Below are positions 3,203 through 61,184 of a stretch of DNA of 62,187 nt, piece by piece. The first letter of the stretch is position 1. Every line of letters starts with the position of its first letter. Below the pieces are notes generated by a model, which saw only the letters and a list, made by a program, of their open reading frames with translations, had not been told where the DNA came from and searched no databases. Source of the stretch: Thermoanaerobaculia bacterium. Its GTDB lineage: Bacteria; Acidobacteriota; Thermoanaerobaculia; Multivoradales; JBCCEF01. The DNA is taken from assembly GCA_036259255.1 (NCBI GenBank), contig DATACC010000271.1:1-62187 (forward strand), in the 5' to 3' direction. The position numbers and the translations under genes were made by a program.

Positions 3203-7977
<4,775 letters not shown>

Positions 7978-7981
<4 letters not shown>

Positions 7982-10900: not shown

Positions 10901-11511
10901 GATTCGAGCAGGCCGTTCTGCCACTCGGCGAGGTCGGCGTACTGCATCGGCTCCTCGTCGTCCCCGGCCGCGGCGGCGGCATCCTCCGGCGCCGCCTCGC
11001 GAACCAGCTCGCGCACCAGGGCCTCCAGGCCGGCGCGGTCGAGGTGGAGCGGCGAGGCGCTCAGCACCAGCAGCCCGTGGCCGGGAGCGAGCCGGGCGAG
11101 GCACACCCGCAGAGGCGGGCCAGCCTCTGCCATGCCGCCGTCCGCCACGCCCTCCCCGTCGAGGAACTCGCCGCGGGCTTCGGCGAGGAGCCGGTCGACG
11201 GCGGCGGCGCGGTCCTCCACGGGCAGGGTTTGGAGATCGCGCTCCTCGACCTCCGGCACCCGGGCGGGAGCGACCGCCTGGAGCGGCATCGTCAGGCCCG
11301 GGAAGGAGCGCAGCTCGGTGCGCAGGATCTCGTGGCGGCCACCGACCACGGCCAGCGCGCGCCGCAGGAGTGCTGCGTCCAGCTCCCCCTCCACGTCGAA
11401 GGCCCGCAGAACCCGCCCGGGGCTCCGGTGCCGGCCGAGGTGCCAGGCGCGGCGCTGCTGGGGAGAGAGGCGGAACCCGCCCCCGCCCGCCGTCGTCGGC
11501 TCGCTACCCAT
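7978..11511 (-). CDS. NRPS: interface (dead C) domain-A(Asp)-PCP
   Basis: Start MGSEPTT...GFRLSPQQ at 11511 with GGAG RBS (track ORF over-extended). C-like domain has SPLHLDRAG instead of HHxxxDG. A code DLTKVGHVGK (TFAADLGHT, CLKIVPSH, NHYGPTETTVG). PCP FFDLGGHSL. Confidence 0.92.
10047..10091. repeat. 15-bp tandem repeat x3 (SPGEP/SAGEP/SPGEP)
   Basis: tcggttctccggggc / tcggctctccggcgc / tcggttctccggggc. Confidence 0.85.
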
Positions 11512-11525
11512 GGTGGACTCCTGGC

Positions 11526-17179
<5,654 letters not shown>

Positions 17180-17183
<4 letters not shown>

Positions 17184-18268
17184 CGCGCCGACCCGACCGT
17201 TTCCAGCCCGAGGCCCCGCGCCGCGGCGTCGGACTCCTCCCGCGAGCACGGCTCGGCCATGCCGACCACCACCAGCCGCTCGCCGGCGTAGGGCTGGCGG
17301 GCGTGGGCCACCGCCATGTTGTCGAGCATCAGCACGTCGCCCTCCTGCCAGGGAAAGACGATGGTCTCCTCCTGGTAGAGCCGGCGCAGATCGTCGAGAA
17401 CCTCCGCCTCGATGGGGGTACCGTCGCCGTAGTAGGTGTTGTAGGGCAGGTCCTCCTCCGGGAACTCGGCGAGCAGCGACTCGCGCACCTGGGGATCGAG
17501 GGTCGAGACGTGGAAGAAGGTGGCGTGGTTGAACCACGCCGGCTCGCCGGTGCGCGGATTGACCGCCACCGCGTCGCGGACCTGCCGGGTGCGCAGCCGG
17601 TCGCCGCCCTTCCACTCGGTCTCGATGCCCTTGTCGCGGCAGTAGCGGTCCACCTCCGCCGGGTCGTCGGTCTGGAAGGCGTTCTGCCAGCGCAGGCCGA
17701 AGCCGTCGTTGTAGTTGCGCACGTAGAGCACCTTGCGCTCGGCGAAGCGCTGGCGCACCGCCGGGTCCACCCGCTGGTAGATCCGGCAGGTGTCGGCGAT
17801 GGGCGTCTCGCCGCCGCGCTCCGGCGCCTTCAGGCAGCAGAAGTAGATCTTCAGCGGCCAGGTCACCCAGTAGGTACCCTCGTTGTGCAGGAAGATCCGC
17901 TGGTCCGACGGGTAGTCCGTGGAGGTGTACACCTGCTCGCCGACCTCGTGGCGAGGCGACGAGCGGTCCCGGTACTCGAGGCGTTCGCCGTCGGAGCTGG
18001 CCTCGACGAAGCCCTGGAACTCGTCCACGGTGCGCACGCCGAAGCCGCGAAACAGCAGCGCCCGGTGGGCGAGCAGCAGCTCGTCGACCTGGCGCCGGTT
18101 GCTGTGCGCCCAGGCGGCCAGGTCCATGCCCGGCACCGAGGGCTCCACCAGCACCGGCATGGGGCGGTCGGCCAGGAGCGGCCGTGTGCGCACCAGTGCC
18201 TCCTCCGACACGCTTACCGTCTTGCGCCGCAGGGCGCCGAAATCCTTCAGGCTCGGTAGGTTGTTCAT
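17180..18268 (-). CDS. Stand-alone TauD/TfdA-family Fe(II)/2-oxoglutarate dioxygenase (amino-acid beta-hydroxylase, SyrP-like)
   Basis: YTSTDYP...IFLHNEG...GGETP...WFNH...WQEGDVLMLDN...AHARQPY. AGGAG RBS before the ATG at 18268; alternative ATG at 18283 overlaps the upstream stop. Confidence 0.92.
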
Positions 18269-18279: not shown

Positions 18280-23051
<4,772 letters not shown>

Positions 23052-23055
<4 letters not shown>

Positions 23056-26000
23056 TCGGCCGTCGCTCCGCCGCGGCCGGTGCCGGGGCCGGCGCCGGCC
23101 AGGCGGCCCGCCTCCTCGTCGCAGAGCAGCTCCAGCTCGGCGAGCTGGCGCTCGATGTCGTCGTCGCCGGTCCCCGGCACCGGCCCGGCGAGCCGGGGGC
23201 CCTCGCCGTCCTCGCCGCCGCCGCCGGCGAGGACGGCGTCCACCGCCGCCGCCAGGGCCGCCACCGTGGGCGCCTCGAACAGCACGCGCAGCGGCAGATC
23301 CACCTGTAGCGCCTCGCGCTGGCGCGAGAAGACCCGGGTGGCCAGCAGCGAGTGGCCGCCGAGCTCGAAGAAGTTGGCGTCGACGCTCACCCGGTCGTGG
23401 CCCAGCACCTCGGCCCAGATCCGGGCCATCACCTCCTCGGTGGGCGTGCGCGGAGCCACGTGCTCGCGGCGCGCCCGCTCGCGCGCCTCGTCGAGGGACG
23501 GGAGCGCGGCGTAGTGGATCTTGCCGTTGAGGGTCAAGGGGAGCCGCTTGAGGTGGACGAACAGGTTCGGCATCGTCTCCTCGAGGATGCTGCGGCGCAG
23601 CTCCTCGCGAAGCTCGGCGACCTCGATCTCGTGTCGCGACACGTAGTAGGCCACCAGCACGTCGCGGCCGTTGCCGTCGCGGGCGAGGGTCACGACGCTG
23701 TCGCGCACCTGGGGCACCCGGTTGAGGGCCAGCCGGATCTCGTTGAGCTCCACCCGGAAGCCGTGGTACTTCACCTGGTCGTCGGCCCGGCCGAGGAACT
23801 CGATGCTGCCGTCCGGCAGCCGCCGGGCGAGATCCCCGGTGCGGTAGCGCCGGCCCCCGGGCTCCGGCGAGAAAGGATCGGGGAGGAAGCGGTCGGCGGT
23901 CAGGCCCGGGCGGCGGAAGTACCCCCGGGTCACCGGCTCTCCGCCCACGAACACCTCCCCGGCAACCCACTCCGGCACCGGTTCGCCGCGCCGGTCGAGG
24001 AGCACCACCCGGGCATTGGCGATGGGGCGGCCCAGGGGCACCGAGGCGCAGCGCGGGTCCAGACCGCCGGGCTCGACCCGGTGGGTGAGCACGCCCACCG
24101 TGGTCTCCGAGGGGCCGTAGTGGTTGTACACCACGCAGTCCGGCGCCCGGCCCGCCAGCTCCTCCACCCACGCCGGCCGCGACGCCTCGCCCCCGAGCAC
24201 CAGGCGTCGCGCCGGCAGGGCCAGCTCCGGCCGGGGCTGGTCGAGCAGCGCCTCCAGGTGGCTCGGTACGATCTTCAGGCAGTCGATGCCGTGGGCGGTG
24301 AAGTACTCCCCCACCGCCTGGGCATCGGCCAGGCGGTCCAGCGACAGCACGTGGAGGCAGCCTCCGGTCGACAGGCTGGGGAAGATCGCCGTGTTGCCGA
24401 GGTCGGCGGCGAAGGTCGACACGTTGGCGTAGGAGGCTCCGGCCGGCAGGTCGAGCCGCTCGGCGACGGAGGTCACGTAGTTGACGAGCTGGCGGTGCTC
24501 CACCGCCACCCCCTTGGGCCGGCCGGTGGAGCCGCTGGTGAAGACGACGTAGGCCAGGTTGCCCGCCGCGGCGCCGGATTCGACCGGCGCTGAGCTCTCG
24601 AGCGCCACCCGGTCCCAGTCGTCGTCGATGCGCAGCCGGCGGCCCGGCCAGCCGGCCAGCCGCTCCTCGACGGCCGCCTGCACCAGCACCACCGGCGCCT
24701 CGACGTCCTCGAGCAGGAAGCCGAGGCGCTGGGGCGGCTGCCACGGCTCCAGCGCCACGTAGGCGCCGCCGGCCTTCATCACGCCGAGCAGAGCAACCAC
24801 CAGCTCGGCGCCGCGGTCCATGCACAGGGCCACCGGCACGTCCGGCCCGACGCCGAGGCCCTGCAGGTGGCGGGCGAGCTGGTTGGAGCGCTCGTCGAGC
24901 TCGGCAAAGGTGATCGAGGTTCCCTCGAACACCACCGCCGGCGCCGCCGGCGTGCGCCGTGCCTGGGCCTCGAAGAGGTGGTGGAAGCAGGCCTCCCGCG
25001 GAAAGTCGGCAGCCGTGGCGTTGACCTCCACGAGCAGGTGCCGGCGTTCGGCCGCGCCGAGCAGGTCGAGGGCCTCGATGGGTGCCTCCGGCATCGCCAG
25101 GGCGCTCTCCAGGCAGACGATCCACCGGGCGAGCAGGCGCTCGGCGTCGGCGGCATCCACCCGGGAGGCGTCGTGGTGGAGGGTCGCCCGGAGGGCATCG
25201 CCCCGGCGCTCGCAGGCGAGGCGCAGAGCGAAGCGCTCCGTGGTCACCTGCCTGCCGACGATGCGCCAGCGCACGCCAGTCCCGCCGACCTGGGCCGGCT
25301 CCTCGGCGAGCTCGAAGGCGGCCGGCAGGGCCGCCTCGCCGGCGCCGTCGGAGCCCTCCCCGGCGAAGCCGTCGGCGTGCTCCCAAGCGGTATCGCGGGC
25401 CTGGCGCAGCATCTCGACGAGATCCGCCAGGCGGTGATCCCGCACCGGACGCACCCGCACCGGCAGCCAGCGGGCGAAGGGACCCAGGGCGTGTTCGAAC
25501 ATCTCGTGACCGCGGCCGTCCTCCGCCAGCGCCACCGTGGTCGATTCGGCACCGGTGGTGCGCCACAGCAGCGCGTGCCAGGCAGCCAGCAGCACCAGGC
25601 CGAGGTCTGCCCCGAGGCGCGCGGCGAGGGTCTCCGCCGCCGCCACGGTGGCGGGCTCCAGGCGGCGGCTCACCGCGTCCGGCGAGAACGGCGCCGCGCC
25701 CGGCCGCTCCCAGGGCAGACGCCAGCCGGCGGCGGCGGCGAGCTCGCGCTGCCAGTGCTCGCGGCTCTCGGCCTCGGCGTTCTCCAGCAGCGAGCTCTGC
25801 CACTCGGCGAACTGGACGTAGCGCACCGCCGGCGCCTCGCCGGCCTCGCCGGCATGAACGGCGGCCAGGTCGTGGACCAGGTTGTCCAGGGTGCGGCTGT
25901 CGGCGCACACCGGCGGCAGGGCGAGCAGCAGCAGGTGGCGGCCCGGCCCGGCCGGCAGCAGGCGGGCCGAGAGCACCGGGCCGGTGGCCGGGTCGAAGGA

Positions 26001-26333
26001 TGCACCGTCGCGCAGCAGCTCGGCGATGCGCTCGGCGGTGGGCTCCTCGGCGGCGGCGGCCGCGGCCGTCTCGTCGCTCCAGGCGGCGGCGCCGGATTCG
26101 GCCATGGCCTGCACGGGGAAGCGCATGCCCGGCAGGCGGTGGAAGCTGGTGCGCAGGATCTCGTGGCGCGCCACCACGCCGTCGAGGGCCCGGGCCAGCG
26201 CGGCGGGCACCACCTCCCCTTCCAGCAGCACGGCGCAGCGGGCGCCGTAGGCACCACCCTCGCCACGCCACGCCTGCCAGGCCCGTCGCTGCTGCGGCGA
26301 CAGTCGAAATCCCTGCAGATCCTCGAACGACAT
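23052..26333 (-). CDS. NRPS: interface domain-A(Asp)-PCP
   Basis: MSFEDLQGFRLSPQQ with GGAG 6 nt upstream (alternative starts 26351, 26369). Dead C motif LPPVCADSR. A code DLTKVGHVGK. PCP FFELGGHSL. Confidence 0.9.
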
Positions 26334-26365
26334 CCGTTGCTCCGTTCCCATGGTTGTGCCCGCGC

Positions 26366-28015
26366 TCACGACGTCAGCTTCCAGCTCCGCACCTCGTCCA
26401 CCAGCTCCGCCAGGTAGCCCTGCTGGAGCGCCGCCTTCTCCTCCGCGGGGACCGAGGCGATCTCCAGCGTCAACATGCGGTTGGCGCGCTCCATGTACCG
26501 CTTGAACTGATCGAGGGAGACACCCTTGCCGAGCAGGTAGGGGATGTACCAGAAGTCGAAGGACCACTGGGGCAGCCACTGGGAATCCTCGATGGTGAGG
26601 ATCATCCGCTCGATATGGTCCATCGCCTCGAGGCTGTCCATCGAGTCGTGGGTCCACACGAAGCCGTCGCCCGTGATGCCGTACTTTTCCTTCTGCTGGT
26701 GGATCGGAGTACCGGCTTCGTTGTACCACATTTGCGCACGGAAGTAATCCACCTTGTTCTCGCGGATGAACTCCACCGTCTCGGCCACCGTGGCGGCGCT
26801 CTCGCCGGGGAAACCGACGATGAACGAGCCGAAGGTGAGGATGCCGTGGCGGCGCAGCATCTCGATGCCGCGGCGGTAGTGGTCGGCGCTCGCCTTCTTG
26901 TTCATGTTCTCGAGCACCGACGGCGAGCCCGACTCGATGCCGAGGAAGACCCCCTTGCAGCCGCTGGCGGCCATCAGCTCCACCGCCTCCTCGTCGGAGT
27001 TGCTGCAACGGAAGTAGGAGAACCAGTTGAAGCCGTACTGCTTGCGGATCATCAGCCGGCAGATGTCCTTGAAGCGCGGCAGGGGCACGTTGAAGGTGTC
27101 GTCGATGAACACCACGTTGCGCACGTTGCCCCGGGCGTGCATCGAGTCGAGCTCGCGCTCGATGGCCTCGAGGCTCGCCAGGGTGAGCTTTCCGGCCCGG
27201 GTGGGGTAGTTGCAGAAGGCGCACTTGAAGGCGCAACTGCGTGCCGTGCGGGTCTGGAGGGTGGCACCGAGATCGTCGCTCGACAGCTCCAGCCAGTCGA
27301 TGGTGTGTTCCTCGAGGGAGTTGCCCTCCGGCTCCACCGGGTTGGTGACGAGAGCGCCGTCGGCATCGAAGTAGAGGATGTTGGGCACGGCGGATAGGTC
27401 GCCGCCGGCGGCCAGGGCCTCGACGATGAGCCCCAGGGTGTGCTCGCCCTGGGAGTCGTTGACGTAGATGTCGGCCCCCAGGTCGCGCAACGCGGAGGTC
27501 AGCTCCTCGCCGGAGTAGTTGCGGGCGTGGTTGGCGATCAGCGGCCCGCCGACGACGATGGGCACCCGCTCGTTGTGCTCGCGGATGAACTCCACCATCT
27601 CGTTGACCGGGAAGTTCCAGACGTAGAAGGTGGTGGTGATGGCGACGCAGCCCGGGTCGCCGGCGAGCAGCTCGGCCAGCCGGTCCTTCTCGTACTGGAA
27701 CAGGTTCACGTAGTCGGCGCTGCGGCCCCGGCGCCGCAGCGCGTTGGTCAGGTAGGCGGCGGCGAGGTTGGGAATCTCCCCCGACTTGAAGGGCGCCGCG
27801 CCCACGCCGTCGCCGCCGCCGTGGGCGCGCTCCCAGGCGAAGTTCATCAGGTCGACGTAGTTGAGCTTGCAGCCGTCGATCTCGACGAAGCTGGTCTTCA
27901 AGTCACGGTACGCCTCGGAGTCCTCGCCGTACTGGCGCAGCAACCCCGCATAGCGCTCGAAGGGTGGGTCGTTGTACCCGATCACCACGCAGTCCAACCG
28001 GTTTCGCGTCGTCAT
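26366..28015 (-). CDS. Cobalamin-dependent radical SAM methyltransferase, PhpK/BcpD-like, 549 aa
   Basis: CAFKCAFC (CxxxCxxC) followed by FIDDTFN, GIESG, FIVGFPGE. N-terminal B12-binding-like region (PNLAAAYL, AITTTFY, IVVGGP). The N-terminus DCVVIGYN...AYRDL resembles the PhpK family as I recall it. Confidence 0.85.
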   Translation of the reverse strand: MTTRNRLDCVVIGYNDPPFERYAGLLRQYGEDSEAYRDLKTSFVEIDGCKLNYVDLMNFAWERAHGGGDGVGAAPFKSGEIPNLAAAYLTNALRRRGRSADYVNLFQYEKDRLAELLAGDPGCVAITTTFYVWNFPVNEMVEFIREHNERVPIVVGGPLIANHARNYSGEELTSALRDLGADIYVNDSQGEHTLGLIVEALAAGGDLSAVPNILYFDADGALVTNPVEPEGNSLEEHTIDWLELSSDDLGATLQTRTARSCAFKCAFCNYPTRAGKLTLASLEAIERELDSMHARGNVRNVVFIDDTFNVPLPRFKDICRLMIRKQYGFNWFSYFRCSNSDEEAVELMAASGCKGVFLGIESGSPSVLENMNKKASADHYRRGIEMLRRHGILTFGSFIVGFPGESAATVAETVEFIRENKVDYFRAQMWYNEAGTPIHQQKEKYGITGDGFVWTHDSMDSLEAMDHIERMILTIEDSQWLPQWSFDFWYIPYLLGKGVSLDQFKRYMERANRMLTLEIASVPAEEKAALQQGYLAELVDEVRSWKLTS

Positions 28016-28046
28016 CTCTAGCCTGTCTCCTCGTTGGTGCCGCGGC

Positions 28047-31000
28047 TCAGGCCGAAGCGTGGTGCAGCTCGGCGCAGCGCACGGTGTCGACGGAGACCAT
28101 GTCGCCCATGGCCACCAGGATCTTGCGGGGGCCGGCGAAGGGGTACCGGCCGTGGGCGGTCAGCATGTTGTCGACCAGTACCAGGTCCCCCTTCTGCCAC
28201 GGGAAGGTCACCGCGTTGCGGCGGTACAGCTCGACGATCTCCAGCACCAGCTCGTCGGGAATCGGCGAGCCGTCGCCGAAGTAGACGTGGCGCGGCAGGT
28301 CCTCGACAGCGAACAGCTCGAGCAGCGGACCCCGATCCTCCTCCGGCAGGCAGGCGATGTGATGGGCCTGGATCTGGTTGAAGAACACCTTGGCCCCGGT
28401 GCGCGGGTGGCGGGCCACCGCCGGGCATACCTTGCGGGTGCGCAGGCCGCCGTCGGCCTTCCACTCGCACGCGATGTCGGAGCGCCGGCACCAAGCCTCC
28501 ACCTCCGCCCGGTCGGAGGTGTGGAAGAAGTCGCGCCAGTCGACGTCGAGGCCCGGCGTGTAGTTGCGCACGTACATCACGCCGAGCCGCTCGAAGCGGT
28601 CCCGCACCTCGGCATCGAGCAGCTCGTAGATGCGGCGGCAGTCGACCAGGGGCGTCTCGCCTCCTTCGAGCGCCGGCTGCACGCAGAGGAAGAGCTGGCG
28701 CAACGGCCAACTGTCGAGCTGGGAGCTCTCGTTGTGGAACCAGATGGTGCGGTCTGGCGGATAGGGGGTGGAGGTGTAGACCTTTCCCGTCACCGCGTCG
28801 TGGGGCAGGTCGCCGTACTCGTCGAACAGCTCGCCGGCCACCGCCTTGGCCACTGCCTCGAACCGCTCGGCGGTGTCGACGCCGAAGCCGCGGAACAGCA
28901 CTGCCCCGTGCTCGTGGAGCCGGGCTTCGAGCACCTCGTGGTTGCCCGCCACCCACTCCGCGAGGTCCACCGCCTCGGCAGCCGGCCGCACCATCAGCGG
29001 CGCGGCGGCACCGGGCACACCGGGGAGCGGCTCCATCTCGACCAGCCGGCTGCGCGAGAGCTGGACGGCCGCCGGCTCCACGTTCATGAACTTGGCGAAG
29101 TCCGCCTGCTTGCGCTGCTTCTTCTCGGTCACGTCTTGCTTCCTTTCGCTCTCGGCGAGATGTTCGAGCTGGCTCAACCGCGCCCCCGGCCGCTCGGCGA
29201 CGCTCGCCAGCAGCGTCGTGAGGTGCCGCGTCAGGGTGCGGATGCCGGGGGCATCGAAGAGGTCGGTGCTGTACTTCCAGGTGGCCTCGAGGCCGTCGCC
29301 GGTCTCGACCAGTACCAGCACCAGGTCGAATTTCACGGTGCGGTTGTCGATCTCCAGCGCCTCGAGCTCGAGCCCCGGCAGCTCGAGGCGCCGGCGGTCC
29401 GGGTTCTGCAGCACCAGCAGGTACTGGAACAGCGGCGCCCGGCCGGCGGTGCGCTCGGGCTGCAGCTCCTCGACCAGGCGCTCGAAGGGCAGCTCCTGGT
29501 GGGTGAAGGCGCCGACGGCGACCTCCCGCTCGCGGGCCAGCAGGTCGCGGAACGTCGGATCGCCGGCAAGGTCGGTGCGCAGCACCAGGACGTTGACGAA
29601 GAAGCCGATGAGCCGCTCCGTCTCCACCCGGTTGCGGTTCGCCACGTCGGTGCCGATGGCCACGTCCTCGACTCCCGTGTAGCGGTGCAACAGGGCCTTG
29701 AAGGCGGCGGCGAGCACCATGAACAGGGTCGCCCCCTCCGCCCGCCCGAGGTCGCGCAGGGCACGGGTGAGCTCGGCCGTCAGCCGGAAGCTGTGCTGCG
29801 CGCCGCCGTAGGACGGCCGCTCCGGCCGAGGGCGGGCGAAGGGGAGCTGGAGCTCCGGCGGCGGCGTGGCGAGGCGGCGCCGCCAGTAGGCCAGGTGGCC
29901 CTCGAGCACGTCGCCGGTGAGCCAGCGGCGCTGCCATGCGGCGTAGTCGGCGTACTGCACCGGCAGCGCTGGCAGCGGCGAAGGCTCGCCGCGGGAGAAC
30001 GCCGCATAGAGGACCGCCAACTCCTGCGTCAGGACGCCCATCGACCAGGCGTCGCTGACCACGTGGTGGATGTCGAACAACAACAGGTGTTCGGCCGGAT
30101 CGCGATGCACCAGGGCGGCGCGCAGCAACCGGCCCGCCGCGAGATCGAAGGCCCGGCGGCCCCAGCGCCGCAGCAGGCGCTCGGATTCCGCCGCCGCGAC
30201 AGGCTCCGGCACGCTCCCGAGATCGATCCTCGGCAGCGGCACCGGCCGTGCCGGCTCCACCACCTGAAACGGCTCGCCACCGGCCTCCCGGAGACTCGTG
30301 CGCAGCGCCTCGTGACGACGAACGATCTCTGTCAGCGCCCGCTCCAGGGCGGCTGCGCCGGTGGCCCCCAGGGGGCCGCGAAGCCGCAGCGCCCGCGGCA
30401 CATTGAAGGCGCAGCTCTGGGGATCGAGCTGCTGGAGGAACCACAGGCGCTGCTGGGCGAAGGACAGCGGCAGACGCCCACGACGCCCCACCGGAACCAG
30501 GGGTGGAGCGGCACCCCGCTCGCCGGCGCCGAGGGCGGTCTCGACCCGCCGGGCCAGGCCGGCCAGGGTGGCGTCCTCGAACAGCGTGCGCAGCGGCAGC
30601 TCGATGCGGAACGCCTCCTGAATCCGGGCGGCGAGGCGGGCGGCCAGCAGGGAGTGGCCGCCGAGAGCGAAGAAGTCGTCGGCGGGGCCAATCTGCTCGA
30701 CGCCCAGGATCCGGCTCCAGATCGTCGCCAGCAGCGCCTCCACCGGACCCAGGGGCCGGTCTCCCCCGCCGCTCGCCGACGCCTGCTCGGGCTGCGGCAG
30801 GGCGGCGCGGTCGAGCTTGCCGGTGCGGGTGCGGGGCAGGCCAGGCAGCGCCACGAACCAGGAGGGCACCAGGGCCTCCGGCAGGTGTCGGCGCGCGAGC
30901 TCGCGCAGCGCCGCGGGCGCCGGCTCGTCGCGCCCCGCCGGCACCCAGTAGGCTGCCAGCGCCTCGCGCACCGGCACCACCGCCACCTCCCGCACCGCCG

Positions 31001-33797
31001 GGTGGGCGGCGAGCACCGCCTCGATCTCGTCGAGCTCCACCCGGACGCCGCGCACCTTGACCTGGCGGTCGCGGCGGCCGAGAAACTCGAGCTCGCCGCC
31101 GCCCCCCCAGCGCACGAGGTCGCCGGTGCGGTAGAGCCGCGCCCCCGGCGTCCCGCCGGGAAACGGATCGGGCAGGAACCGCTCGGCGGTGGCCGCCGGC
31201 CGGCGGTTGTAACCGCGGGTCACCCCGGCGCCGGCGATGGCCAGCTCGCCGGCCACTCCCACCGGCAGCGGAGCGCCCCCCGCGTCGAGCACGTAGAAAC
31301 GCACGTTCTGGATCGGCCGCCCGATGGGCGCCGGACCGCCCTCCCCCGCCGCCGCCGGCAGGCGCCAGAAGCTGGAGGTCATGGTGCATTCGGTGGGGCC
31401 GTACTGGTTGACCACCGCGACGGCGGGGCCGAACAGGCGGCAGGCGGCGGCGCCGTCGGCCCGGTGGAGGACCTCCCCGCTCAGCACCAGAGTGGCCAAC
31501 GGCACCCACGGCAGCTCCCCCTCCGGCACCGAGCGCACCAGCTCCCGGAACAGGGTCGGTACCATGCCGAGCACCGTGTCGACGCCGTGGCGCCGCAGGG
31601 CCGCCAGCAGGGCCCGTGGATCCCGCGCCTCGGCCTCGGCCGGCAGCACCACCCGGCCGCCGGCCGCCAGCGGGCCCAGGGTGTCGCGGATCGAAGCGTC
31701 GAAGAACGGCGCCGCCACCTGGAGCACCACGCTGTCGGGGCCAACGCCGTACTCGCGCAGCACGAAGTCGAGGTAGTTGGCGGCGCCGCCGTGGGTGCTG
31801 AGCACGCCCTTCGGCCGGCCGGTGGTGCCGGAGGTATAGGTGACGTAGGCGAGGCCCGCGGGGTCGACCCGGACCTCGGGCCGGTCCTCCGGCGCCGCCG
31901 CCAGGAGGGCCGCATCGCGGTCGAGGAGGACTACCGCCCGCCCGGCCGAGGCGGCGGCGGGCAGGGCGGCCAGCAGGCGCTCCTCGCTCACCAGCACCCG
32001 GGCTCGGGCGTCGTCGAGCACGAAGGCGAGCCGCTCCCCCGGCGCCGCGAGGTCCAGCGGCAGGGCGGCACCGCCGGCCTTGAGCACGGCGAGCAGGGCG
32101 GCGACCAGGTTCGGACCGCGCTCCAGGGCCAGGGCCACCGGCACCTCCGGGCCGACCCCGAGGCGGCGCAGGTGGTGCGCCAGGCGGTTGGCCCGCCGGT
32201 CCAGCTCGCCGTAGGGCACGGTGACCTCACCGGCCACCAGGGCCACCGCCTCGGGCCGGCGCGCCGCCTGCTCCTCCACCCGGCGATGCAGGCCGGCCTC
32301 GGGCAGGTTTCCGCCGGACAGGGATACGTCGGGCAGGGCTTCGCCGGACCGAGCCTCGCCGGGAAGGGGCCGGGCGGTATCGTTGAAACCTTCCAGCACC
32401 AGCCGCCGCTCGGCCTCGCCGAGCAGCGCCAGGGTGGTGGCGGCGGCCTGTGGGCGGCGGACGGCGTCGGCGATCAGGGCGCTCCAGCCGGCGGCCAGCC
32501 GCTCGGCCGTGGCAGCGTCGCAGCGCGCCGGGTCGAAGCGCAGCGCGGCGGCGAGACCGTCGCCCCGGCGTCGGCACACCAGCTCCACCGCGAAGGGCTC
32601 GCCGAGCACCCGCTGCTCGAGCACCGCCACCCGCAGGTCCCGGACCACCGTCTCCGGCGCCCACTCGTCCCAGGCAAAGCCGGTGGACAGGCGCAGCGGC
32701 CCGTCGCCCTGGCCGGCGGCACCGGGGGCCTCCGGGTCGAAGGAGGTCTGCCAGCCGTCGGCCTCGCGGGCGGTGGCGGCGAGGCGGGCGGCAAGGGTGC
32801 CCAGGGTGGCGCGCGGATCGATCCCCACGCGCGTCGGCAGGCAGCGGGCGAAGGGACCGAGACCGTGGCGCAGATCCTCGTGGGGGCGGCCGTCGGCGGC
32901 GCGGCCCAGCACCACCTCGTCCTCGCCGGAGCGGCGCGCCAGCAGCAGCGCCCAGGCGGCGGCGGCGACGGCCGGCAGCGGCGCTCCGGCCGCCGCGGCG
33001 AGGGCCTCCAGGCCGGCCCGGGTGTCGGCGGCGAGGTCTACGGTCACCGTGTCCACCGCCCCCGTGTCTTCCGCCCCCGTGCCCGCGGCCCCCGTGCCCA
33101 CCGCCCCGGCTACGGCTCCGGCCTCGCCCCGGCCGGCGAAGGGGAAGGCCTGGAGCGGCAAGGAGGCGAGGCCGAGGCCGCGCCAGTACGCCTGCGCCTC
33201 GGGGGCGGGCTCGTCTTCGAGCAGCTCGTTCTGCCACTCGGCGGCGTCGGCGTACTGCAGCACCTCGTCGTCGTCACCCCCGCCCTGGTTCGGCTCCGCG
33301 TACTCCCGGACCAGCTCGCCGGCCAGCAGGCGCAGGCTCCAGCCGTCGGCGCACAGCGCCGGCCAGCCGAGCAGCAGGGCGTGCCGGCGCTCGCCCAGGG
33401 CGACGAGCACCGCGCGGGGCACCAGGGCGGCGGCGCCGGGGCGGGCGTCCTCGCCGAGGCGGCGCTGCAGCTCGGCGCGCTGCTCGCCGGCGGCGAGGGG
33501 GGCGAGGTCCGCCGTCTCCAGGGCCGGCGTTTCGAGGGCCGGTGTTTCGGGGGCCGAGCCGCCCACCTCGCCGATGCGTTGCACCGGCAGCCGCACCCCG
33601 GGCATCCGTTCGAAGCCGGTGCGCAGGATCTCGTGGCGCGCGACGACCCGGCCGAGAGCCGCGGCGAGACGGGCGCGGTCGAGCTCGCCGTCGAGCCGGA
33701 GCACGAGCTGGGCGCGGCACGGGGCGCCCTCCTCGTGCAGCCGCCACAAGCGGCGCTGCTGCGGCGACAGCCGGAAGCCTTGCAGAACCTCGGTCAC
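28047..33797 (-). CDS. NRPS: interface domain-A(unassigned)-PCP-C-TauD dioxygenase, 1916 aa
   Basis: GTG start VTEVLQGFRLSPQQ. Dead C motif WPALCADGW. A code about DARGVSQMTK. PCP GGHSL. C HHVVSDA. C-terminal TauD with WFHNES...GGETP...DNMLTAHGRYPF. Confidence 0.92.
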   Translation of the reverse strand: MTEVLQGFRLSPQQRRLWRLHEEGAPCRAQLVLRLDGELDRARLAAALGRVVARHEILRTGFERMPGVRLPVQRIGEVGGSAPETPALETPALETADLAPLAAGEQRAELQRRLGEDARPGAAALVPRAVLVALGERRHALLLGWPALCADGWSLRLLAGELVREYAEPNQGGGDDDEVLQYADAAEWQNELLEDEPAPEAQAYWRGLGLASLPLQAFPFAGRGEAGAVAGAVGTGAAGTGAEDTGAVDTVTVDLAADTRAGLEALAAAAGAPLPAVAAAAWALLLARRSGEDEVVLGRAADGRPHEDLRHGLGPFARCLPTRVGIDPRATLGTLAARLAATAREADGWQTSFDPEAPGAAGQGDGPLRLSTGFAWDEWAPETVVRDLRVAVLEQRVLGEPFAVELVCRRRGDGLAAALRFDPARCDAATAERLAAGWSALIADAVRRPQAAATTLALLGEAERRLVLEGFNDTARPLPGEARSGEALPDVSLSGGNLPEAGLHRRVEEQAARRPEAVALVAGEVTVPYGELDRRANRLAHHLRRLGVGPEVPVALALERGPNLVAALLAVLKAGGAALPLDLAAPGERLAFVLDDARARVLVSEERLLAALPAAASAGRAVVLLDRDAALLAAAPEDRPEVRVDPAGLAYVTYTSGTTGRPKGVLSTHGGAANYLDFVLREYGVGPDSVVLQVAAPFFDASIRDTLGPLAAGGRVVLPAEAEARDPRALLAALRRHGVDTVLGMVPTLFRELVRSVPEGELPWVPLATLVLSGEVLHRADGAAACRLFGPAVAVVNQYGPTECTMTSSFWRLPAAAGEGGPAPIGRPIQNVRFYVLDAGGAPLPVGVAGELAIAGAGVTRGYNRRPAATAERFLPDPFPGGTPGARLYRTGDLVRWGGGGELEFLGRRDRQVKVRGVRVELDEIEAVLAAHPAVREVAVVPVREALAAYWVPAGRDEPAPAALRELARRHLPEALVPSWFVALPGLPRTRTGKLDRAALPQPEQASASGGGDRPLGPVEALLATIWSRILGVEQIGPADDFFALGGHSLLAARLAARIQEAFRIELPLRTLFEDATLAGLARRVETALGAGERGAAPPLVPVGRRGRLPLSFAQQRLWFLQQLDPQSCAFNVPRALRLRGPLGATGAAALERALTEIVRRHEALRTSLREAGGEPFQVVEPARPVPLPRIDLGSVPEPVAAAESERLLRRWGRRAFDLAAGRLLRAALVHRDPAEHLLLFDIHHVVSDAWSMGVLTQELAVLYAAFSRGEPSPLPALPVQYADYAAWQRRWLTGDVLEGHLAYWRRRLATPPPELQLPFARPRPERPSYGGAQHSFRLTAELTRALRDLGRAEGATLFMVLAAAFKALLHRYTGVEDVAIGTDVANRNRVETERLIGFFVNVLVLRTDLAGDPTFRDLLAREREVAVGAFTHQELPFERLVEELQPERTAGRAPLFQYLLVLQNPDRRRLELPGLELEALEIDNRTVKFDLVLVLVETGDGLEATWKYSTDLFDAPGIRTLTRHLTTLLASVAERPGARLSQLEHLAESERKQDVTEKKQRKQADFAKFMNVEPAAVQLSRSRLVEMEPLPGVPGAAAPLMVRPAAEAVDLAEWVAGNHEVLEARLHEHGAVLFRGFGVDTAERFEAVAKAVAGELFDEYGDLPHDAVTGKVYTSTPYPPDRTIWFHNESSQLDSWPLRQLFLCVQPALEGGETPLVDCRRIYELLDAEVRDRFERLGVMYVRNYTPGLDVDWRDFFHTSDRAEVEAWCRRSDIACEWKADGGLRTRKVCPAVARHPRTGAKVFFNQIQAHHIACLPEEDRGPLLELFAVEDLPRHVYFGDGSPIPDELVLEIVELYRRNAVTFPWQKGDLVLVDNMLTAHGRYPFAGPRKILVAMGDMVSVDTVRCAELHHASA
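33048..33107. repeat. 15-bp imperfect tandem repeat x4 within interface domain
   Basis: cgtgtccaccgcccc / cgtgtcttccgcccc / cgtgcccgcggcccc / cgtgcccaccgcccc. Confidence 0.8.
33513..33557. repeat. 15-bp imperfect tandem repeat x3 (APET/PALET/PALET)
   Basis: cgtctccagggccgg / cgtttcgagggccgg / tgtttcgggggccga. Confidence 0.8.
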
Positions 33798-33804: not shown

Positions 33805-36800
33805 TCAGGCCTCCAGCTCGCTCAGCCGCACGACACCGCCGCCCATCGCCACCAGCACCCGCCGCGGCGGGGTGAACGGCATGCGGCCGTGGGCGGTCAG
33901 CGTGTTGTCCAGCATCAGCACGTCGCCCTTCTGCCACGGGAAGGAAACCATTGAGTCGCGCACCACCTGGCGCACGTGCTCGAGCTCCGCCGGGTCCAGG
34001 GGCGAGCCGTCGCCGAAGTAGGCGTTGATCGGCAGCTCCTCCTCCGAGGTGGTGGCGAGCAGGGCGTCGGCGAGGTCGCCGAGGTTCGACGGGTGCCACT
34101 GGTCGACCTGGTTGAACCACACGGGCTCGCCGGTCTTCGGATGACGGATGGTGGCCGGACGCACCTGGCGGGTGGTCAGGCCGCCGTCGTCGCGCCAGCG
34201 GAAATCGATGCCGCCCTCGCGGCAGTAGGCCTCCACGGTGTCGCGGTCGGCGGTCTCGAACACCGTCTGCCACGACAGGCCGGCGCCGCGGTCGCCGTGC
34301 AGGTTGCGGGTGTAGAGGACGCCCTTCTCGGCGAAGCGGCTGCGCACCGCCGGGTCGATCTGCTGCCACACCTTGCGGCTGTCGGCGATCGGCGTCTCGC
34401 CGCCCTGCTGCGGCTCGACGTCGCAGTAGAAGAAGATCTTGCTCGGCCACTTGTGGGCGTAGGACAGCTCGTTGTGGAGCGACACGAAGTACTCCGCCGG
34501 GTACTCGGTGGAGGTGTAGACCTTGTCGCCCACCATCACCCGCGGCGACGAGCCCTCGACGTAGTTGGCGAGCTCCGGCGTCACCGTGTTGACGAAGCTC
34601 TCGAAGGCCGCGGGCGAGGCGACGGCGAAGCCGCGAAACAGGATGCCGCCGTGGACCAGCAGATCCCGCTCGACCTGCTCGGTGTTGCTGCGCACCCAGG
34701 CGGCGAGGTCCACGTCGTCCAGGTTGGGCCGCAGCACGAGGGGCAAGGTCGAGCCGTTGAGCGCTTCGCGGCGCACCAGCTCGTCCTGCGCGAGGTTGAC
34801 GCTGCGGCGCCTGGTGATCTTGAGCTTCTTCAAGTTGGAGGTGCTCACTTCGTCCTGCCTGCTCATTCGCTTCTCCGTTTCTCGGGTGCTGAGGGCGTCC
34901 ACCAGGACGCCGAGACGGGTATCGGGGGCGGTGACGGCGCGCTCGGCCAGCACCAGCAGCTCCTCGCGCAGCCGCGCCATGGTGGCTGCCTCGAAGAGGT
35001 CGGTCTTGTACTCGAAGGCGCCGGCCAGCCGGTCGCCGGCCTCCCCCATGTAGAGGGTGAAGTCGTACTTGGCCGTGCCATGCCGGACCGGCAGCCGCTC
35101 CAAGGTGAGCCCCGGCAGGGCAGCGGGGTCGGCGGGCGCGGCGTTCTGGTAGTTGAATACCACCTGGAACACCGGGCTATGGCCCGGATGGCGCTCGGGC
35201 CTGAGCTCCTCGACCAGCTTCTCGAAGGGCAGATCCTGGTGCGCGTAGGCACCCAGGGTGGTCTCGCGCACACGCGCCAGCAACTCACGGAACGTCGGAT
35301 CGCCGGACAGGTCGGTGCGCAGGGCCAGGGCGTTGATGAAGTAGCCGATCATGCCGTCGAGCTCCGGCCGGCTGCGGCCTGCCACTGGCGCGCCGACCAC
35401 CAGATCGAGCTGCCCGGTGAGGCGGTGGAGCAGCACCTGGAGCACGGCGAGCAGCACCATGAACGGGGTCGCTCCCTCGCGGCGGGCGAGCTCGCGCACG
35501 CGGGCCGACGACTCGGGCGTCAGGGCCACCGGCTCGATGGCCCCGCGGGCGCTCGGCCGTGCCGGGCGCGCCCGGTCGGTGCGCAGGTCGAGCACCGGAA
35601 GCGGCGGCGCGAGACGCCGGCGCCAGTAGCAGAGCTGGGCCGCCAGCAGATCCCCGGTGAGGTATCGGCGCTGCCAACCGGCGAAGTCGGCGTACTGGAT
35701 CGGCGGTTCCGGCAGCGGCGAAGGCCGCCCTGCCACGAAGGCCCCGTAGAGGGCCGCCAGCTCGCCGATCAGCACGCCCGCCGACCACTGGTCGCCGACG
35801 ATGTGGTGCATCGTGAACCAGGCGGCGTGTTGCTCGGCAGCCAGGCGCACCAGCAGCGCGCGCACCAGGGGGCCCCGGGCGAGGTCGAAGGGCCGCCGCG
35901 CATCGCGAGCGGCCGTGAGCAGCATCTCGGGCCGGCGACGCCCTGCCGGCAGGGCGGTGAGGTCCACCCACGGCAGCGGCCAGCGGCCCGGGGGCGCCAC
36001 ATGCTGCACCGGACCCTCGCCGAGCAGCGGAAAGCTGCTGCGCAGCGACTCGTGGCGACGCACCGTCTCGTCGAGGCTGCGCTGCAGCGCGCGGGTGTCG
36101 AGCCAGCCGGTCAGGAGCAAGCCGGCAGACTGGTTATAGAGCGGCGCGTCGGGCTCCAGGCGAGCCAGGAACCACTGGCGCTCCTGAGCGAAGGACAGCG
36201 GCAGGTCGCCGTCCCGCGGCAAACGCTCGATGGGCGGCAGCAGCGCGTCTCCACCGCCACCGAGCTGCGCCACGTGGGCCGCAATCCCGGCCACGGTGGG
36301 CTGCGCGAACAGCGTCGCGGGGGGCAAGTCCACGGCGAGCGCGGCGCGCAGCTCGCCGATCAGGCGCAGGGCGAGCAGCGAGTGGCCGCCGAGCTCGAAG
36401 AAATCATCGTCCAGGCCCACCCGGTCGATGCCCAGCAGCCGCTGCCAGATCTCCGCCACCGCCCGCTCGGTGCCGTCGCGCGGCGCCACGTAGACCGTCG
36501 ACAGGTCCGGCCGCGGGTAGGCCCCGGACGACGCGGCCCCAGGCGACGCGGCCCCGGTCAACGCCGCCCCGGCCGCTGCGGCGGCCCCTACGGTCCCGCC
36601 GCCGGCGACGTGGCCGAGCGGATCCACCACCACCTCGCACCCTCCGTCCCACGCCAGAACCCGGTGAAGAACCTCCACCGCATGCTCGGGCTCGACCGGG
36701 ACGCCGGCACTCCCCAGCCAGTGGATCGACACGGTGGGTCCGGCGCCCCGGGCGCTGCGGGCGTGGGCTGCGGCGTCGAGGGCCGCACCCGCGGCGGCGG

Positions 36801-39800
36801 CCACGAGGGGTTGCACGGCGAGCGGCCCGAGCATTGGGCCAGCGGTGGCCGCGGGAGCAGAGGCTGAATCCGGAGACCAGAAGGCCAGGAAATCGAGCTC
36901 CCCGCCGCCCAATGCCTCGCTCAGAACGGCGGCGCCCCGCACTCTGGCGGCATACGCCCGCTCGGCCTCGTCCCTGCCCTTGCCCGCGTCCTCGCCCTCG
37001 CCGTCCAGCGGGCCGTTCACGGCCTCGCCGGCGGCGTGCACGGCGCCGTGGATCGAGCCGAAGCTCTCCCGCGCCCGGGCCACCACCGCCGACACCTGCT
37101 CGGGGCTGGTGACGTCGGCGGTGGCGGTGAGCACCGCGGCACCGAGAGCCTCGAGCTCCTGCACCCGGCCCGGAGGCGCCGGGAACCGGTCGACGAGCAC
37201 CAGCCGCGCACGGACCCGGCGCGCCAGGCCGCGAGCGACGGCGAGGCCCGTCTCGCCCCACGCACCGGTGACCATGTAGACACCCCGCCCACGCAGCACC
37301 GCGCCGCCGGCGGCCTCGTCGAACGGCCCCGCGACGAGCTCGCGAACCCAACGGCGGCCGTGGCGGTAGGCCACTACCGGATCAGCGGGCGGGGCGGTCA
37401 TCTCGGCGGCGAGTCTGTCGGCAGCCAGCCCGTCGTCGGTCGCCATTCCGCCGGCGACCTCCGGGCCGAGGTCCACCGCCTGGCAGGTGAAGCCCGGCAG
37501 TTGGCCGGGGATCGCCGCGCAGGCTCCGAGCACCGCCACCTGCTCCGCCGTGAGGTCCTCGTCGCCGAAGACCGGCCGGGCGCCGGCGGTGAGCACCCGC
37601 AGGTCGATCGGCGCGCCGGAGGCGGCGGGATCGACGTTCGCGGCGAGCACCTGGACGAGGAGCAGCAGGCTGTCGAGGCCCGGAGGGAGGGGACCGTCCC
37701 CCGCCGCCTCCCGCCGGCCGCAGGACGCCGCAGCACCGAGGCCGCTGGCGTGGACCACGGTGCTCGGCATGTCTCCGGCAGCCCGCAGCACGGCCATCAA
37801 CCGGTGGTGGTCGGCGAGCCGGCGGAGATCCATCCGGTAGCGATGCTCCCCGGCCGCGGTGAAGCCTTCCCCGGCCACCACCGAGACCACTCGCCGCCCG
37901 GTCTCGCGCAGACGCCGCACCAGCGCGGCACCGACGCCGGAGGCATCCTCCACCACCAGCCAGGTGCCGGTGTCCTCGCCGGCCGGGCGCGGCCGGGGCG
38001 ACACCGTCTGCCGCCACACCGGGACCCGGATCCGGTCCGCCGGCCGGCGGTGCTCCGGCGCTGCCGGCACCGGGGAGGCGGCGGCCCGGGAGTCCTCGAT
38101 CCAGTAGCGGCGCCCTTCGAAGGGGTAGGTGGGCAGCGGCACCCGCCGGCGCCGGCGCCGGTCGTGGAAGGCGGTCCAGTCCACCCGCGCGCCGGCCAAC
38201 CACAGGCGGCCCAGCGTCGCCAGCAGGTGCCGGTGGACCGAGGCTCCCGGGGCCCCCTGCGGCAAGCCGGCGAGCGCGCCCGCGGCCTCGGCGCCCGGCC
38301 CCAGGGAACCGCCCGACCCCACCTCGAGAAGCACGGCCCCCATCTGCTGCAGGCTCTCCCAGGTGCCCTGGGGCCAGGATGCCGGCCGACCTAGCCGGGC
38401 CGCCCAGGCCGCGGCATCGGTGGCCTCCTCCGGGGAGAGCCAGGTACCGGTGGCGCCGGACATCAGCCGCAACCGGGGGGGAGCCAGGCGCAGGCGGCGC
38501 AGCGCGGCCTCCGTGGGGCGGGCGACCACCGAAAGGGCCTCCTCCAGCGAGAGCACGCCAGCCACGCAGGCGGCCACGAGCTCCCCCACCCCCTGGCCGA
38601 CGACGCCCTCGGGCCGCAGCCCCCACGAGATCCACAGCCGCGCCAGGGCGTGCTGCACGACGAGCTGGACCGCGTCGAGCTGGATCGTGTCGCCGTCGCC
38701 GGCCGGCTCCGGGCCGCCGACGGGACCCCCGCCGTGGAGGACCGCCTGGAGGTCGATTCCGAGCAGCGGCCCCAGGATGCCGGCGCAACGGTCGATCTCG
38801 GCCCGCAGCACCGGCTCGGCGGCGGCCAGTTCTGCCGCCATCGCGGGGTACCCACCGCTCCGCCCCGGGAACAGGAAGACCACCGGCAGGTCGCTGCGCT
38901 CGGCGGTACCGCTCCAGGCGTGCTCCGGATCATCGCCCGCCAGGGCGGCCGCGCCGGCCGCGAGATCCGGGCAGAGAACCACGCGGCGGTGCCGCAGCTC
39001 CTGCCGCCCGACCTGCAGGGTGAAGGCGACGTCCTCGGGCGTCAGCTCCGGGTGGTCGAGCAGGTACCGGTGCAGGTTGGCGCTCGCCACCTGCAGCGCC
39101 ATCGGCGTGGCGGCGGACACTGGCAACAGGTGCCACGGCCGCGGCGGATGGAGATCCGGCGACGGCGGCGGCAGCACCGGCGCCTCCTCCAGGACGACGT
39201 GGGCGTTGGTGCCGCCGATGCCGAAGGAGCTGACCCCGGCCCGGCGCGGGCCCTCCCCCGGCCACGGGCGCAGCGTGGTGTTGACGTAGAAGGGGCTGGC
39301 GGCGAAGTCGATCGCCGGGTTGGGGGCCGAGAAGTTGAGGCTCGGCGGCAGCTCGCGGTGCTCCAGCGCGAGCACCGCCTTGATCAGCCCCGCCGCACCG
39401 GCGGCGCAATCGAGGTGACCGATGTTGGACTTCACCGAGCCCAGGGCGCAGAAGCCCCGGTCGGCCGTCCCGGCACGAAAGGCACGGTTCAGCGCCGCCA
39501 CCTCCAGGGGGTCCCCCAGGGGGGTGCCGGTGCTGTGGGCTTCGACCAGGGTGACGCTGCGCGGCTCCACCCCGGCGGTCGCCAACGCGGTGGCGATCAC
39601 CTCGGCCTGCCCCTCCTCGCTCAAGGCGGTGAACCCGGCCTTCTGCGCACCGTCGTTGTTGACTGCCGCGCCGCGCAACACCGCCCGCACGGAGTCGCCG
39701 TCGGCCAGCGCGTCCTCCAGCCGCTTGAGCACCACGATTCCCAGCCCGCTGCCGAAGACGCTGCCCCCGGCGTCGGCCGAGAAGGCGCGGCAGTGGCCGT

Positions 39801-40468
39801 CCGGCGACGCCAGGCCGCCCGGGCGGTGGAAGTATCCGGCGGTCTGGGGCACCCGCACCGCCACGGCGCCCGCCAGCGCCAGGTCGCACTGGTACGCCAG
39901 CAGCCCCTGGGCCGCCAGGGAAACCGCCACCAAGGCGGTGGAGCATGCGGTCTGCACCCCGATACACGGACCTCGCAGGTCGAGCCGGTAGGCGACCTGC
40001 GTGGCCAGGTAGTCCTTCTCGTTGCCGATCAACGTCTGCAGCGCCTCCAGGCCCTCCTGGGCCTTGGGGCCGGAGGCGAAGCGAAGCCAATAGGTGTTCA
40101 GCCGTGCTCCCGCGTAGACACCGATCCGCTCCCGGCAGCGCCGCGGGTCGTAGCCGGCATCCTCCAGGGCCTCCCAGGCCGACTCCAGGAACAACCGCTG
40201 CTGCGGGTCCATCAGCTCCGCCTCGCGCGGGCTGTAGCCGAACAGGGCGGCGTCGAACAGATCGATGTCGTCGAGCACCGGCGCCGCCTTGACGTAGGCC
40301 GGGTCCGCCAGCACCTCCGGCGGCACGCCGGCGGCGGCCAGCTCGTCGTCGGAGAACCGGCGCACCGACTCGACGCCGGCCGCCAGGTTGCGCCAGTACT
40401 CCCCGGCGTTGCGGGCACCGGGGAAGCGGCAGGCGAGGCCGACGATGGCGATACTGTCGAGCAGCTCG

Positions 40469-40476
<8 letters not shown>
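33805..40476 (-). CDS. PKS-NRPS hybrid: KS-AT(inactive)-KR(degenerate)-ACP-C-TauD dioxygenase
   Basis: Start MRDELLDSIAIVG at 40476. KS TACST/EAHSTGT/KSNIGH. AT GQGVG, with the catalytic Ser lost and the domain shortened. KR lacks the Lys/Tyr residues. Carrier GGHSL. C HHIVGDQ. TauD SLHNEL...DNTLTAHGRMPF. Confidence 0.92.
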
Positions 40477-54972
<14,496 letters not shown>

Positions 54973-55301
54973 TGATACTCGGTCGTGGCGAACACACGAT
55001 AGAACTGCTTATATTGCAACACAACCTCCGCGACTAAATAGCTGCCGCACAAACGGCAAGCTTCATACGCCACTGGTCCTGCAGTCCCTCTAAAGTGCAC
55101 CCGACTTGGGAAAGCGGGACACCGCAAGGCGAGTTTTACGGCACCTGCTATTCCTAACAAACACTTTTAAATCAGATGAATCTTGTAAAATCAGCATCGA
55201 GATCAGGGGGCGCGGCCGTCATTTCCCCTTTACGCAGGATGCACAGCCGTGTTGCGGTATCCTGCCGAGAGTGTGAGAATTTCCTCGCCCCTGGAGGTGC
55301 C
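54973..55301. promoter_or_regulatory. AT-rich divergent intergenic region, likely holding the cluster promoter
   Basis: Sharp visible drop in GC between divergently oriented genes. No confident -35/-10 assignment. Confidence 0.6.
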
Positions 55302-57908: not shown

Positions 57909-58023
57909 GGCGATCTCCTGTCGTACGCCGCCAGGGCTCCGGCCGGAGGAAGCCGGTTCCGGGGAGGCATCCCAGGAGATCAGCAAGAGACACGCCACCG
58001 TGGGCAGCGACGGCCGGCGAGAG

Positions 58024-60999: not shown

Positions 61000-61184
61000 T
61001 TCCTGATCGTACCGCCGCGGCCGGGGGCTTGACAACGCGAGCCCCCCGGCGAGCCCCGGCGTCCCGGTTTCCCTCACCCGGACCACCCTAGAAACGTAAT
61101 CCCTTGATGGAGATGATTCGACCTCTCGAAGAATCTCTCGTCCTTCCGTCGAACCGACGGTCCACGAACCGCCAAGGAGACCCC

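Follow-up and report, generated by a model that had tools for sequence, protein, structure and literature searches.

The enzymes PhpK and BcpD (Pmet), from the pathways to phosphinothricin tripeptide (PTT), bialaphos, and phosalacine, methylate an H-phosphinate derived via phosphoenolpyruvate (PEP) mutase. Siderophore nonribosomal peptide synthetases (NRPSs) reportedly carry a fused Asp beta-hydroxylase of the TauD type together with an interface (I) domain, an arrangement that Reitz et al. are said to have described in 2019 and that supplies the criteria for an I domain used here. AptU, encoded in the phosphonate-free polyketide synthase (PKS)-NRPS cluster for allopeptimicin in Actinoallomurus, is 42% identical to Pmet of S. 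viridochromogenes and has been proposed to introduce the methyl substituent at position 4 of 2-hydroxy-4-methylglutarate (PMC9169493). CysS, from the cystobactamid pathway, methylates a substrate bound to a peptidyl carrier protein (PCP) (PMC8992657), and DscE is a B12 radical S-adenosylmethionine (SAM) C-methylase encoded with the discodermin NRPS, a combination that its authors call unusual (PMC12858407). Here we describe a radical SAM gene at positions 26366-28015 (minus strand) of a 62,187-nucleotide stretch of Thermoanaerobaculia bacterium DNA (assembly GCA_036259255.1, contig DATACC010000271.1), referred to below as the window. The gene lies in a PKS-NRPS operon directly before gG, a stand-alone split module with an Asp specificity code. 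We favor, with moderate confidence, a reading in which its product is a cobalamin radical SAM C-methylase acting on the carrier-bound Asp of gG, on the assembly line.

The gene is an intact open reading frame (ORF) for a protein of 549 residues with zero internal stops, and its ATG at 28015 lies behind a GGAGA motif. In the encoded protein (P0001), an N-terminal cobalamin-binding Rossmann domain is followed by a radical SAM core that bears the CxxxCxxC motif, as in class B radical SAM enzymes (Table 1). The three Cys residues of the motif (C261, C265, and C268) are invariant across 14 aligned homologues. An earlier account of this DNA, made from its letters alone (the sequence-only reading), had described the same two domains and likened the protein to PhpK. 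A hidden Markov model search bore this out: TIGR04479, "PhpK family radical SAM P-methyltransferase," matched P0001 with 640.2 bits (cutoff, 600) over model positions 2 to 502 of 504, and the next-best NCBIfam family reached 96 bits only. Searching the whole genome with TIGR04479 led to an identical outcome. The AlphaFold2 (AF2) model of P0001 (pLDDT, 86) had TsrM, MgmA (the methyl-coenzyme M reductase glutamine methylase), AprD4, CysS, OxsB, and TokK as fold neighbors in Foldseek, and it superposed on the cobalamin-bound structures of TsrM, OxsB, and TokK. A sequence search against solved structures gave remote matches only (62 bits or less). The fold search confirms the enzyme class and carries no information on the substrate. 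Going by family membership, P0001 would transfer methyl groups as other class B (cobalamin-dependent) methylases do, by the methylcobalamin/two-SAM route. Local GC content dips at the gene (0.67, compared with about 0.75), and horizontal transfer was considered as the cause. It was rejected because third-position GC (GC3) is 0.93, like that of the flanking genes, and the dip is therefore attributed to amino-acid composition.

The placement of the gene given by the sequence-only reading, wedged between a C-TauD end and an I-A(Asp)-T protein inside a coupled operon, was confirmed. The gaps to gI and gG are 31 and 14 nucleotides (nt), respectively, and on the coding strand neither gap contains anything that resembles a promoter or a terminator. 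In the domain strings used here, C, A, and T are condensation, adenylation, and thiolation domains, and "I" denotes a condensation-like domain without HHxxxDG. At gG, such a domain, with no HHxxxDG, stands directly before A(Asp) and after the C-TauD end of gI. The I-type domains align with normal C domains at an hhalign probability of 100%. The C domain near the end of gI presumably carries out condensation with the Asp borne by gG. An identical Asp code, DLTKVGHVGK, is found in three I-A-T units of the cluster (gD, gG, and the first module of gK). Of these, gG alone is preceded by TauD and by a radical SAM gene; the proteins before gK and gD end in a plain C domain, without TauD. An I-like domain marks each split "C/I-A-T" junction of the cluster (five in all), not hydroxylated residues alone.

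Loci from other genomes indicate the downstream module as the putative partner of the enzyme. About 90 homologue loci were annotated with domain models made from the window's own domains, and the gene was nearly always found within an NRPS or PKS-NRPS operon. Two layouts predominate. In type 1 loci, to which this one belongs, the radical SAM gene comes after a protein with a C or C-TauD end and before a protein that opens with an I domain of about 460 amino acids (aa) and A-T. In type 2 loci, a protein ending in C is followed by the radical SAM gene and then by a half-C domain of about 265 aa with A-T. Actinomycete members adjoin stand-alone A-T genes, one with a Gln-like code. Ten-residue specificity codes were read for all A domains of these loci. 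In 50 nonredundant loci, the first A domain downstream of the radical SAM gene carried an Asp code (DLTKVGHVGK or DLTKIGHVGK) in 21 cases and an Asn code (DLTK[IV]GEVGK) in 19, and one further code, DLTKIG, was truncated. Asp or Asn (Asx) codes thus make up 40/50 of the first downstream domains, compared with 20/116 of the other A domains in the same loci (Fisher p = 2e-15). When the loci were collapsed to 39 distinct neighbor contexts, 16 were Asp, 13 were Asn, and 9 were other. Codes vary among the nearest A domains on the upstream side (Asn, Cys, Thr, Val, Ser, Glu-like, and others), and many type 1 loci have a PKS module with a C-TauD end as the upstream protein. A clean split into Asp and Asn clades, which had been expected in the enzyme tree, was not seen; Asp-linked and Asn-linked members are interleaved. 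This interleaving means that the Asx link arose or was kept repeatedly and was not inherited with a single cluster.

Two Pyrinomonadaceae loci (L038 and L059) have, after the radical SAM gene, a half-C-A-T protein whose code is the Val code DAFWLGGTFK, not Asn. Judging from this code, these members may methylate Val.

Natural fusions point in turn to where the enzyme works. A profile-free search of 1.84 billion cluster representatives yielded 150 family members, of which about 26 (P0241-P0338; 740 to 815 aa) carry a C-terminal extension of 250 to 290 aa. Profile-profile comparison (hhalign, 98 to 100%) identifies this extension as a condensation domain's C-terminal lobe, the same half-C piece with which the Asn modules of type 2 loci begin. 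Radical SAM-T fusions are represented by P0238 (L109:10001-12409; 59% identical to P0001) and by the protein at L098:7926-10445. These sit after TauD and I-A(Glu)-T, with the Glu code DAKDLGVVDK, and are followed by a gene for a SAM methyltransferase and by C-A(Asn)-T-TE. A more distant relative, P0271 (38% identical to P0001), is a radical SAM-C-T-TE fusion. Together, the T, half-C, and C-T-TE fusions speak for a role on the assembly line. In a genome that belongs to the host's order, a locus at G085:C3:678980-680482 (L116) matches TIGR04479 with 585 bits, just below the cutoff, in a 980-aa open frame; it is possibly another fusion.

In the proposed mechanism, the A domain of gG, given its observed code, would load L-Asp on its own T domain. 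P0001 would reach the Asp-S-pantetheinyl arm while held by the dead I domain of gG, the C-TauD end of gI, or both, a docking proposal made because relatives show fusions. As in the general class B mechanism, one SAM would be cleaved at the [4Fe-4S] cluster to give a 5'-deoxyadenosyl radical, which would strip hydrogen from the side chain of Asp. The predicted target is C-beta, which bears the sole sp3 C-H outside C-alpha. The carbon radical would then take the methyl group from methylcobalamin, and a second SAM would remethylate the cobalamin. The TauD domain fused to gI would hydroxylate the same beta carbon, before or after methylation. This would yield 3-methyl-Asp or, as seems more likely for this cluster, 3-hydroxy-3-methyl-Asp. 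Joining the chain to the modified Asp would fall to the C domain near the end of gI, and gF (C-A(Gly)-T-C) would continue.

C-methylation of a carrier-bound residue, perhaps with recruitment by an I domain, had been one of two suggestions in the sequence-only reading. The carrier-bound part is favored by the link to Asx modules with I or half-C domains and by the fusions, while the carbon attacked and docking on the I domain go beyond these data. That reading also held that such a role would be new, which does not apply to class B radical SAM enzymes in general: CysS on a PCP-bound substrate, DscE on a nonribosomal peptide, and AptU as a proposed C-methylase all precede it. B12 radical SAM methylases in NRPS pathways are thus already known; the probable one described here is tied to split Asp/Asn modules. 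A literature search turned up no NRPS pathway in which methyl-Asp or methyl-Asn was reported to arise through a radical SAM enzyme.

Several points weigh against methylation of the gG Asp. The code read-out rests on a GrsA-PheA reference segment that was entered by hand, although many canonical codes were recovered exactly, which indicates that the read-out is sound. Nine of the 39 contexts adjoin a non-Asx module (Val, Thr, Glu, Gln, or Phe-like), and the family therefore reaches beyond Asx. Many type 1 loci share the cassette TauD, radical SAM, I-A(Asp)-T, and C-A(Gly) and are therefore not fully independent. Within the cluster itself, the I-A(Asp)-T modules of gK and gD have no adjacent radical SAM gene, so an I domain alone does not specify the enzyme. 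The literature search gave no characterized member of this clade, at either the biochemical or the product level, and we know of no natural product with 3-hydroxy-3-methyl-Asp. Finally, the rare DAR-type code of gI recurs near homologues in three other cluster types.

This last observation bears on where else a methyl group might go. The enzyme could C-methylate the unusual, probably acidic residue loaded by gI (code DARGVSQMTK), such as a Glu/isoAsp-like unit, in place of the downstream Asp; this would be a milder version of the second suggestion in the sequence-only reading, with carbon and not phosphorus as the target. The radical SAM gene directly follows gI, and DAR or DGR codes (DARSLSQMTK, DARHLSLMTK, and DGRHLALMAK) are found near homologues in L005, L006, L037, L090, L103, L087, and L082. 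In L037 the first downstream A domain has DARHLSLMTK; in L090 and L103 the last upstream A domain has DARSLSQMTK, with no NRPS downstream; and DGRHLALMAK occurs near the homologues in L087 and L082. D-x-R-H codes are similar to the codes of the microcystin synthetase modules for iso-linked MeAsp and Glu, and Arg at code position 239, as in Glu/Aad codes, hints at an acidic side chain. PhpK acts on a five-atom acidic chain, and AptU is proposed to do so too (PMC9169493). Most type 1 loci, however, have no DAR module: upstream there is PKS-C-TauD or a Cys, Ser, or Asn module, while the downstream Asp is constant, and we consider the gI residue an unlikely target. To about the same degree, we doubt that methylation takes place elsewhere, on the released or near-finished peptide-polyketide, a PKS-derived carbon, or the thiazole, with the position at the Asp module reflecting operon history. 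DscE does methylate a free nonribosomal peptide (PMC12858407), the nine contexts without an adjacent Asx module would be explained, and some homologues lie beside KS genes (L014, L070, and L072). On the other side, Asx adjacency is strong and repeated across different clusters, and the fusions favor action on the assembly line.

Two further alternatives concern the chemistry. The enzyme might carry out a radical reaction other than methyl transfer on Asp/Asn (a rearrangement, cross-link, or dehydrogenation, as for OxsB, AprD4, and BchE). The nonmethylases AprD4 and OxsB match the fold at similar scores. This seems improbable, since P0001 passes the TIGR04479 cutoff, the characterized family members PhpK and BcpD are methyltransferases, and P0001 is 42% identical (over 510 residues) to AptU, whose cluster product has an extra C-methyl group. 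The other alternative, also raised by the sequence-only reading, takes the database name at its word: P0001 would methylate the phosphorus of an H-phosphinate residue, in line with a TIGR04479 score above the cutoff. The adjoining A codes are ordinary Asp/Asn codes, though, and PEP mutase is missing where it would be needed. The sequence-only reading had seen no PEP mutase, and neither the window nor the rest of the 4.07-Mb, approximately 80%-complete assembly gave a TIGR02320 match at E<=0.001. TIGR02320 scored above its cutoff in none of 62 other genomes with close homologues (13 + 49), or 0/63 with the host included; matches near the cutoff (about 290 bits, compared with 319.55) occurred in two genomes, G005 and G022, neither at a radical SAM locus. 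Because no PEP mutase passes the cutoff in any of the 63 genomes, the host's incomplete assembly included, P-methylation at this locus is very unlikely, and that suggestion is not borne out.

Further out in the family, phosphonate-linked members do exist. In L110 (2398-7017 and 10811-11674), the P0271 fusion lies 4 kb from a PEP_mutase gene, in surroundings that include a phosphopantetheinyl transferase (PPTase), glycosyltransferases, and a SPASM radical SAM gene. This gene neighborhood makes P0271 a candidate for a true phosphonate-linked member.

The name "PhpK" is probably misleading for most of the family. More tentatively, and as a whole rather doubtfully, the "PhpK family" may consist mainly of a large set of assembly-line radical C-methylases for carrier-bound Asp/Asn (Glu/Gln in other clades), with the dead or half C domains of split modules as their docking sites, here building 3-hydroxy-3-methyl-Asp with TauD in a metal-chelating product, with true PhpK as a specialized offshoot. 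More than 3,000 proteins under the name "PhpK family P-methyltransferase" could mislead genome miners toward phosphinate or phosphonate products, when the data indicate that most sit in phosphonate-free NRPS clusters tied to Asp/Asn modules. If methylation of carrier-bound Asx is correct, it would provide a direct radical route to beta-methylated Asp/Asn on the carrier, distinct from the glutamate mutase route, and a concrete example of a role for the inactive or half C domains that split modules carry. It would also give a rule for structure prediction, in which a radical SAM gene before I-A(Asp/Asn)-T signals a methylated Asx, and thereby aid product prediction for the large, product-less NRPS clusters of soil Acidobacteriota.

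The more than 3,000 close relatives of P0001 share 60 to 82% identity with it. Named carriers are mostly soil Acidobacteriota (Pyrinomonadaceae, Blastocatellia, and Thermoanaerobaculia), and the cultured myxobacteria Archangium minus, Vitiosangium, and a Myxococcus xanthus strain also have the gene. Among close taxonomic relatives of the host, it was present in 0/7 genomes of the same family and 3/23 of the same order. This patchy presence fits a cluster-borne accessory gene.

The host is a metagenome-assembled genome (MAG) of 364 contigs, and the contig with the window has 75% GC. The gene map was drawn from a GC3 plot and a six-frame domain scan, which show one long run of tightly coupled minus-strand genes (Table 1). 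The modules predict a PKS-NRPS product that is a peptide with abundant Asp, hydroxy-Asp, hydroxy-His, and thiazole units and that looks like a metal chelator.

Table 1. Genes, junctions, and domains of the operon, with genes in order of transcription
Feature	Positions	Strand	Content
gL	47878-55008	-	KS-AT-DH-KR-ACP-C; first in transcription order
gK	40469-47881	-	I-A(Asp)-T-Cy-A(Cys, with oxidase)-T
gJ	33805-40476	-	KS-AT-KR-ACP-C-TauD
gI	28047-33797	-	I-A(DARGVSQMTK)-T-C-TauD
A domain of gI	30777-32300	-	Code DARGVSQMTK; fits no standard amino acid
C domain near gI end	29058-30512	-	Catalytic motif HHVVSDA; precedes TauD
TauD-type Fe(II)/2-oxoglutarate hydroxylase domain, gI C terminus	28050-29000	-	PF02668, 159.9 bits; gI residues 1605-1896; iron-binding HxD/E motif as HNE at 1688
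gI/radical SAM junction	28016-28046	-	31 nt; GGAGA ahead of ATG
Radical SAM gene	26366-28015	-	B12-binding, radical SAM
B12-binding (Rossmann) domain	27518-27781	-	Residues 79-166; PF02310, 34.7 bits (cutoff, 32.1)
Radical SAM core	26765-27244	-	Residues 258-417; PF04055, 92.4 bits
CxxxCxxC motif (CAFKCAFC)	27212-27235	-	C261/C265/C268
Radical SAM/gG junction	26352-26365	-	14 nt, radical SAM stop to gG start
gG	23052-26351	-	I-A(Asp)-T; stand-alone split module, proposed substrate carrier
I domain of gG	24978-26351	-	Residues 1-455; Pfam Condensation, 138.8 bits; LPPVCAD replaces HHxxxDG
A domain of gG	23481-24995	-	Code DLTKVGHVGK, the classic Asp code; also present downstream of the homologous gene at 21 other loci
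T domain of gG	23223-23450	-	GGHSL serine motif, residue 998
gF	18280-23055	-	C-A(Gly)-T-C
Free TauD gene	17180-18268	-	TauD
gE	11526-17183	-	I-A(His, with FkbM-type methyltransferase insert)-T-C
gD	7978-11511	-	I-A(Asp)-T
gB	3203-7981	-	KS-AT-KR-ACP
gA	3-3202	-	C-A; cut by the window edge; last in transcription order

Between gF and the His module gE, the free TauD gene encodes 362 aa with an HNE motif and has the ribosome-binding site AAGGAG. gE begins with an I domain and has its FkbM-type methyltransferase inside the A domain. The layout of these two genes suggests a beta-hydroxy, methylated His. In gJ (36600-40476, minus strand), the AT matches only positions 1 to 114 of the 319 in the Pfam acyltransferase model (56 bits) and the KR score is low; judged from these matches, the PKS module may be partly inactive. 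Past gL, also on the minus strand, are a gene for an M12B/reprolysin-like metallopeptidase (56190-58259), an ORF with a C-terminal glyoxalase/bleomycin-resistance-type domain (58404-59828), and an acyl-CoA dehydrogenase gene (59800-61416), the last two in provisional frames.

Compared with described systems, P0001 is closest by family to PhpK and BcpD, sharing with them TIGR04479 membership, the B12-binding and radical SAM domains, and a similar size (about 550 aa). How P0001 relates to true PhpK is judged from the TIGR04479 score and from the published AptU-Pmet identity. The PTT pathway, too, has an NRPS-made product and an acidic amino-acid substrate, in likeness to this cluster. It differs in that no phosphonate pathway was found here or in the 62 homologue genomes and that the P0001 gene sits at a split Asp module. 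AptU agrees with the proposal for P0001 in that its C-methyl group would adjoin the distal carboxylate in an acidic unit. However, it falls in a separate actinomycete clade of the tree, and its cassette combines a free A domain with genes for a dehydrogenase and a thioesterase in place of a C-TauD/I-A-T junction.

CysS and the carbapenem enzymes TokK/ThnK share the overall fold of P0001 (Foldseek E, 1e-13 to 1e-14), and the substrates of CysS and TokK are borne on pantetheine or a PCP in NRPS-type pathways (PMC8992657; PDB titles). CysS and TokK are only 15 to 17% identical to P0001, however, and CysS and TokK/ThnK methylate iteratively, with an aryl methoxy group or the side chain of a carbapenam as the target, and are not placed at an NRPS module split. 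DscE, compared by its described activity, differs in acting on a free peptide, at Ala/Val positions (PMC12858407).

Direct radical methylation of carrier-bound Asp, as proposed here, would also differ from the glutamate mutase route to beta-methyl-Asp. That route, used for friulimicin, malacidin, and similar lipopeptides, likewise depends on cobalamin, but glutamate mutase rearranges free Glu with adenosylcobalamin before loading.

The junction itself has its closest counterpart in the siderophore Asp beta-hydroxylase/I-domain system, in which a C-TauD end likewise precedes A(Asp)-T headed by a dead C-like domain. The known siderophore cases are, to our knowledge, proteobacterial and without a radical SAM gene at the junction. 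A fused TauD domain is expected to hydroxylate the Asp of the adjacent module (PMC7100376), and I-domain profiles are present in antiSMASH 8 (PMC12230676). In the window, the radical SAM gene is inserted exactly at this junction, between C-TauD and I-A(Asp)-T.

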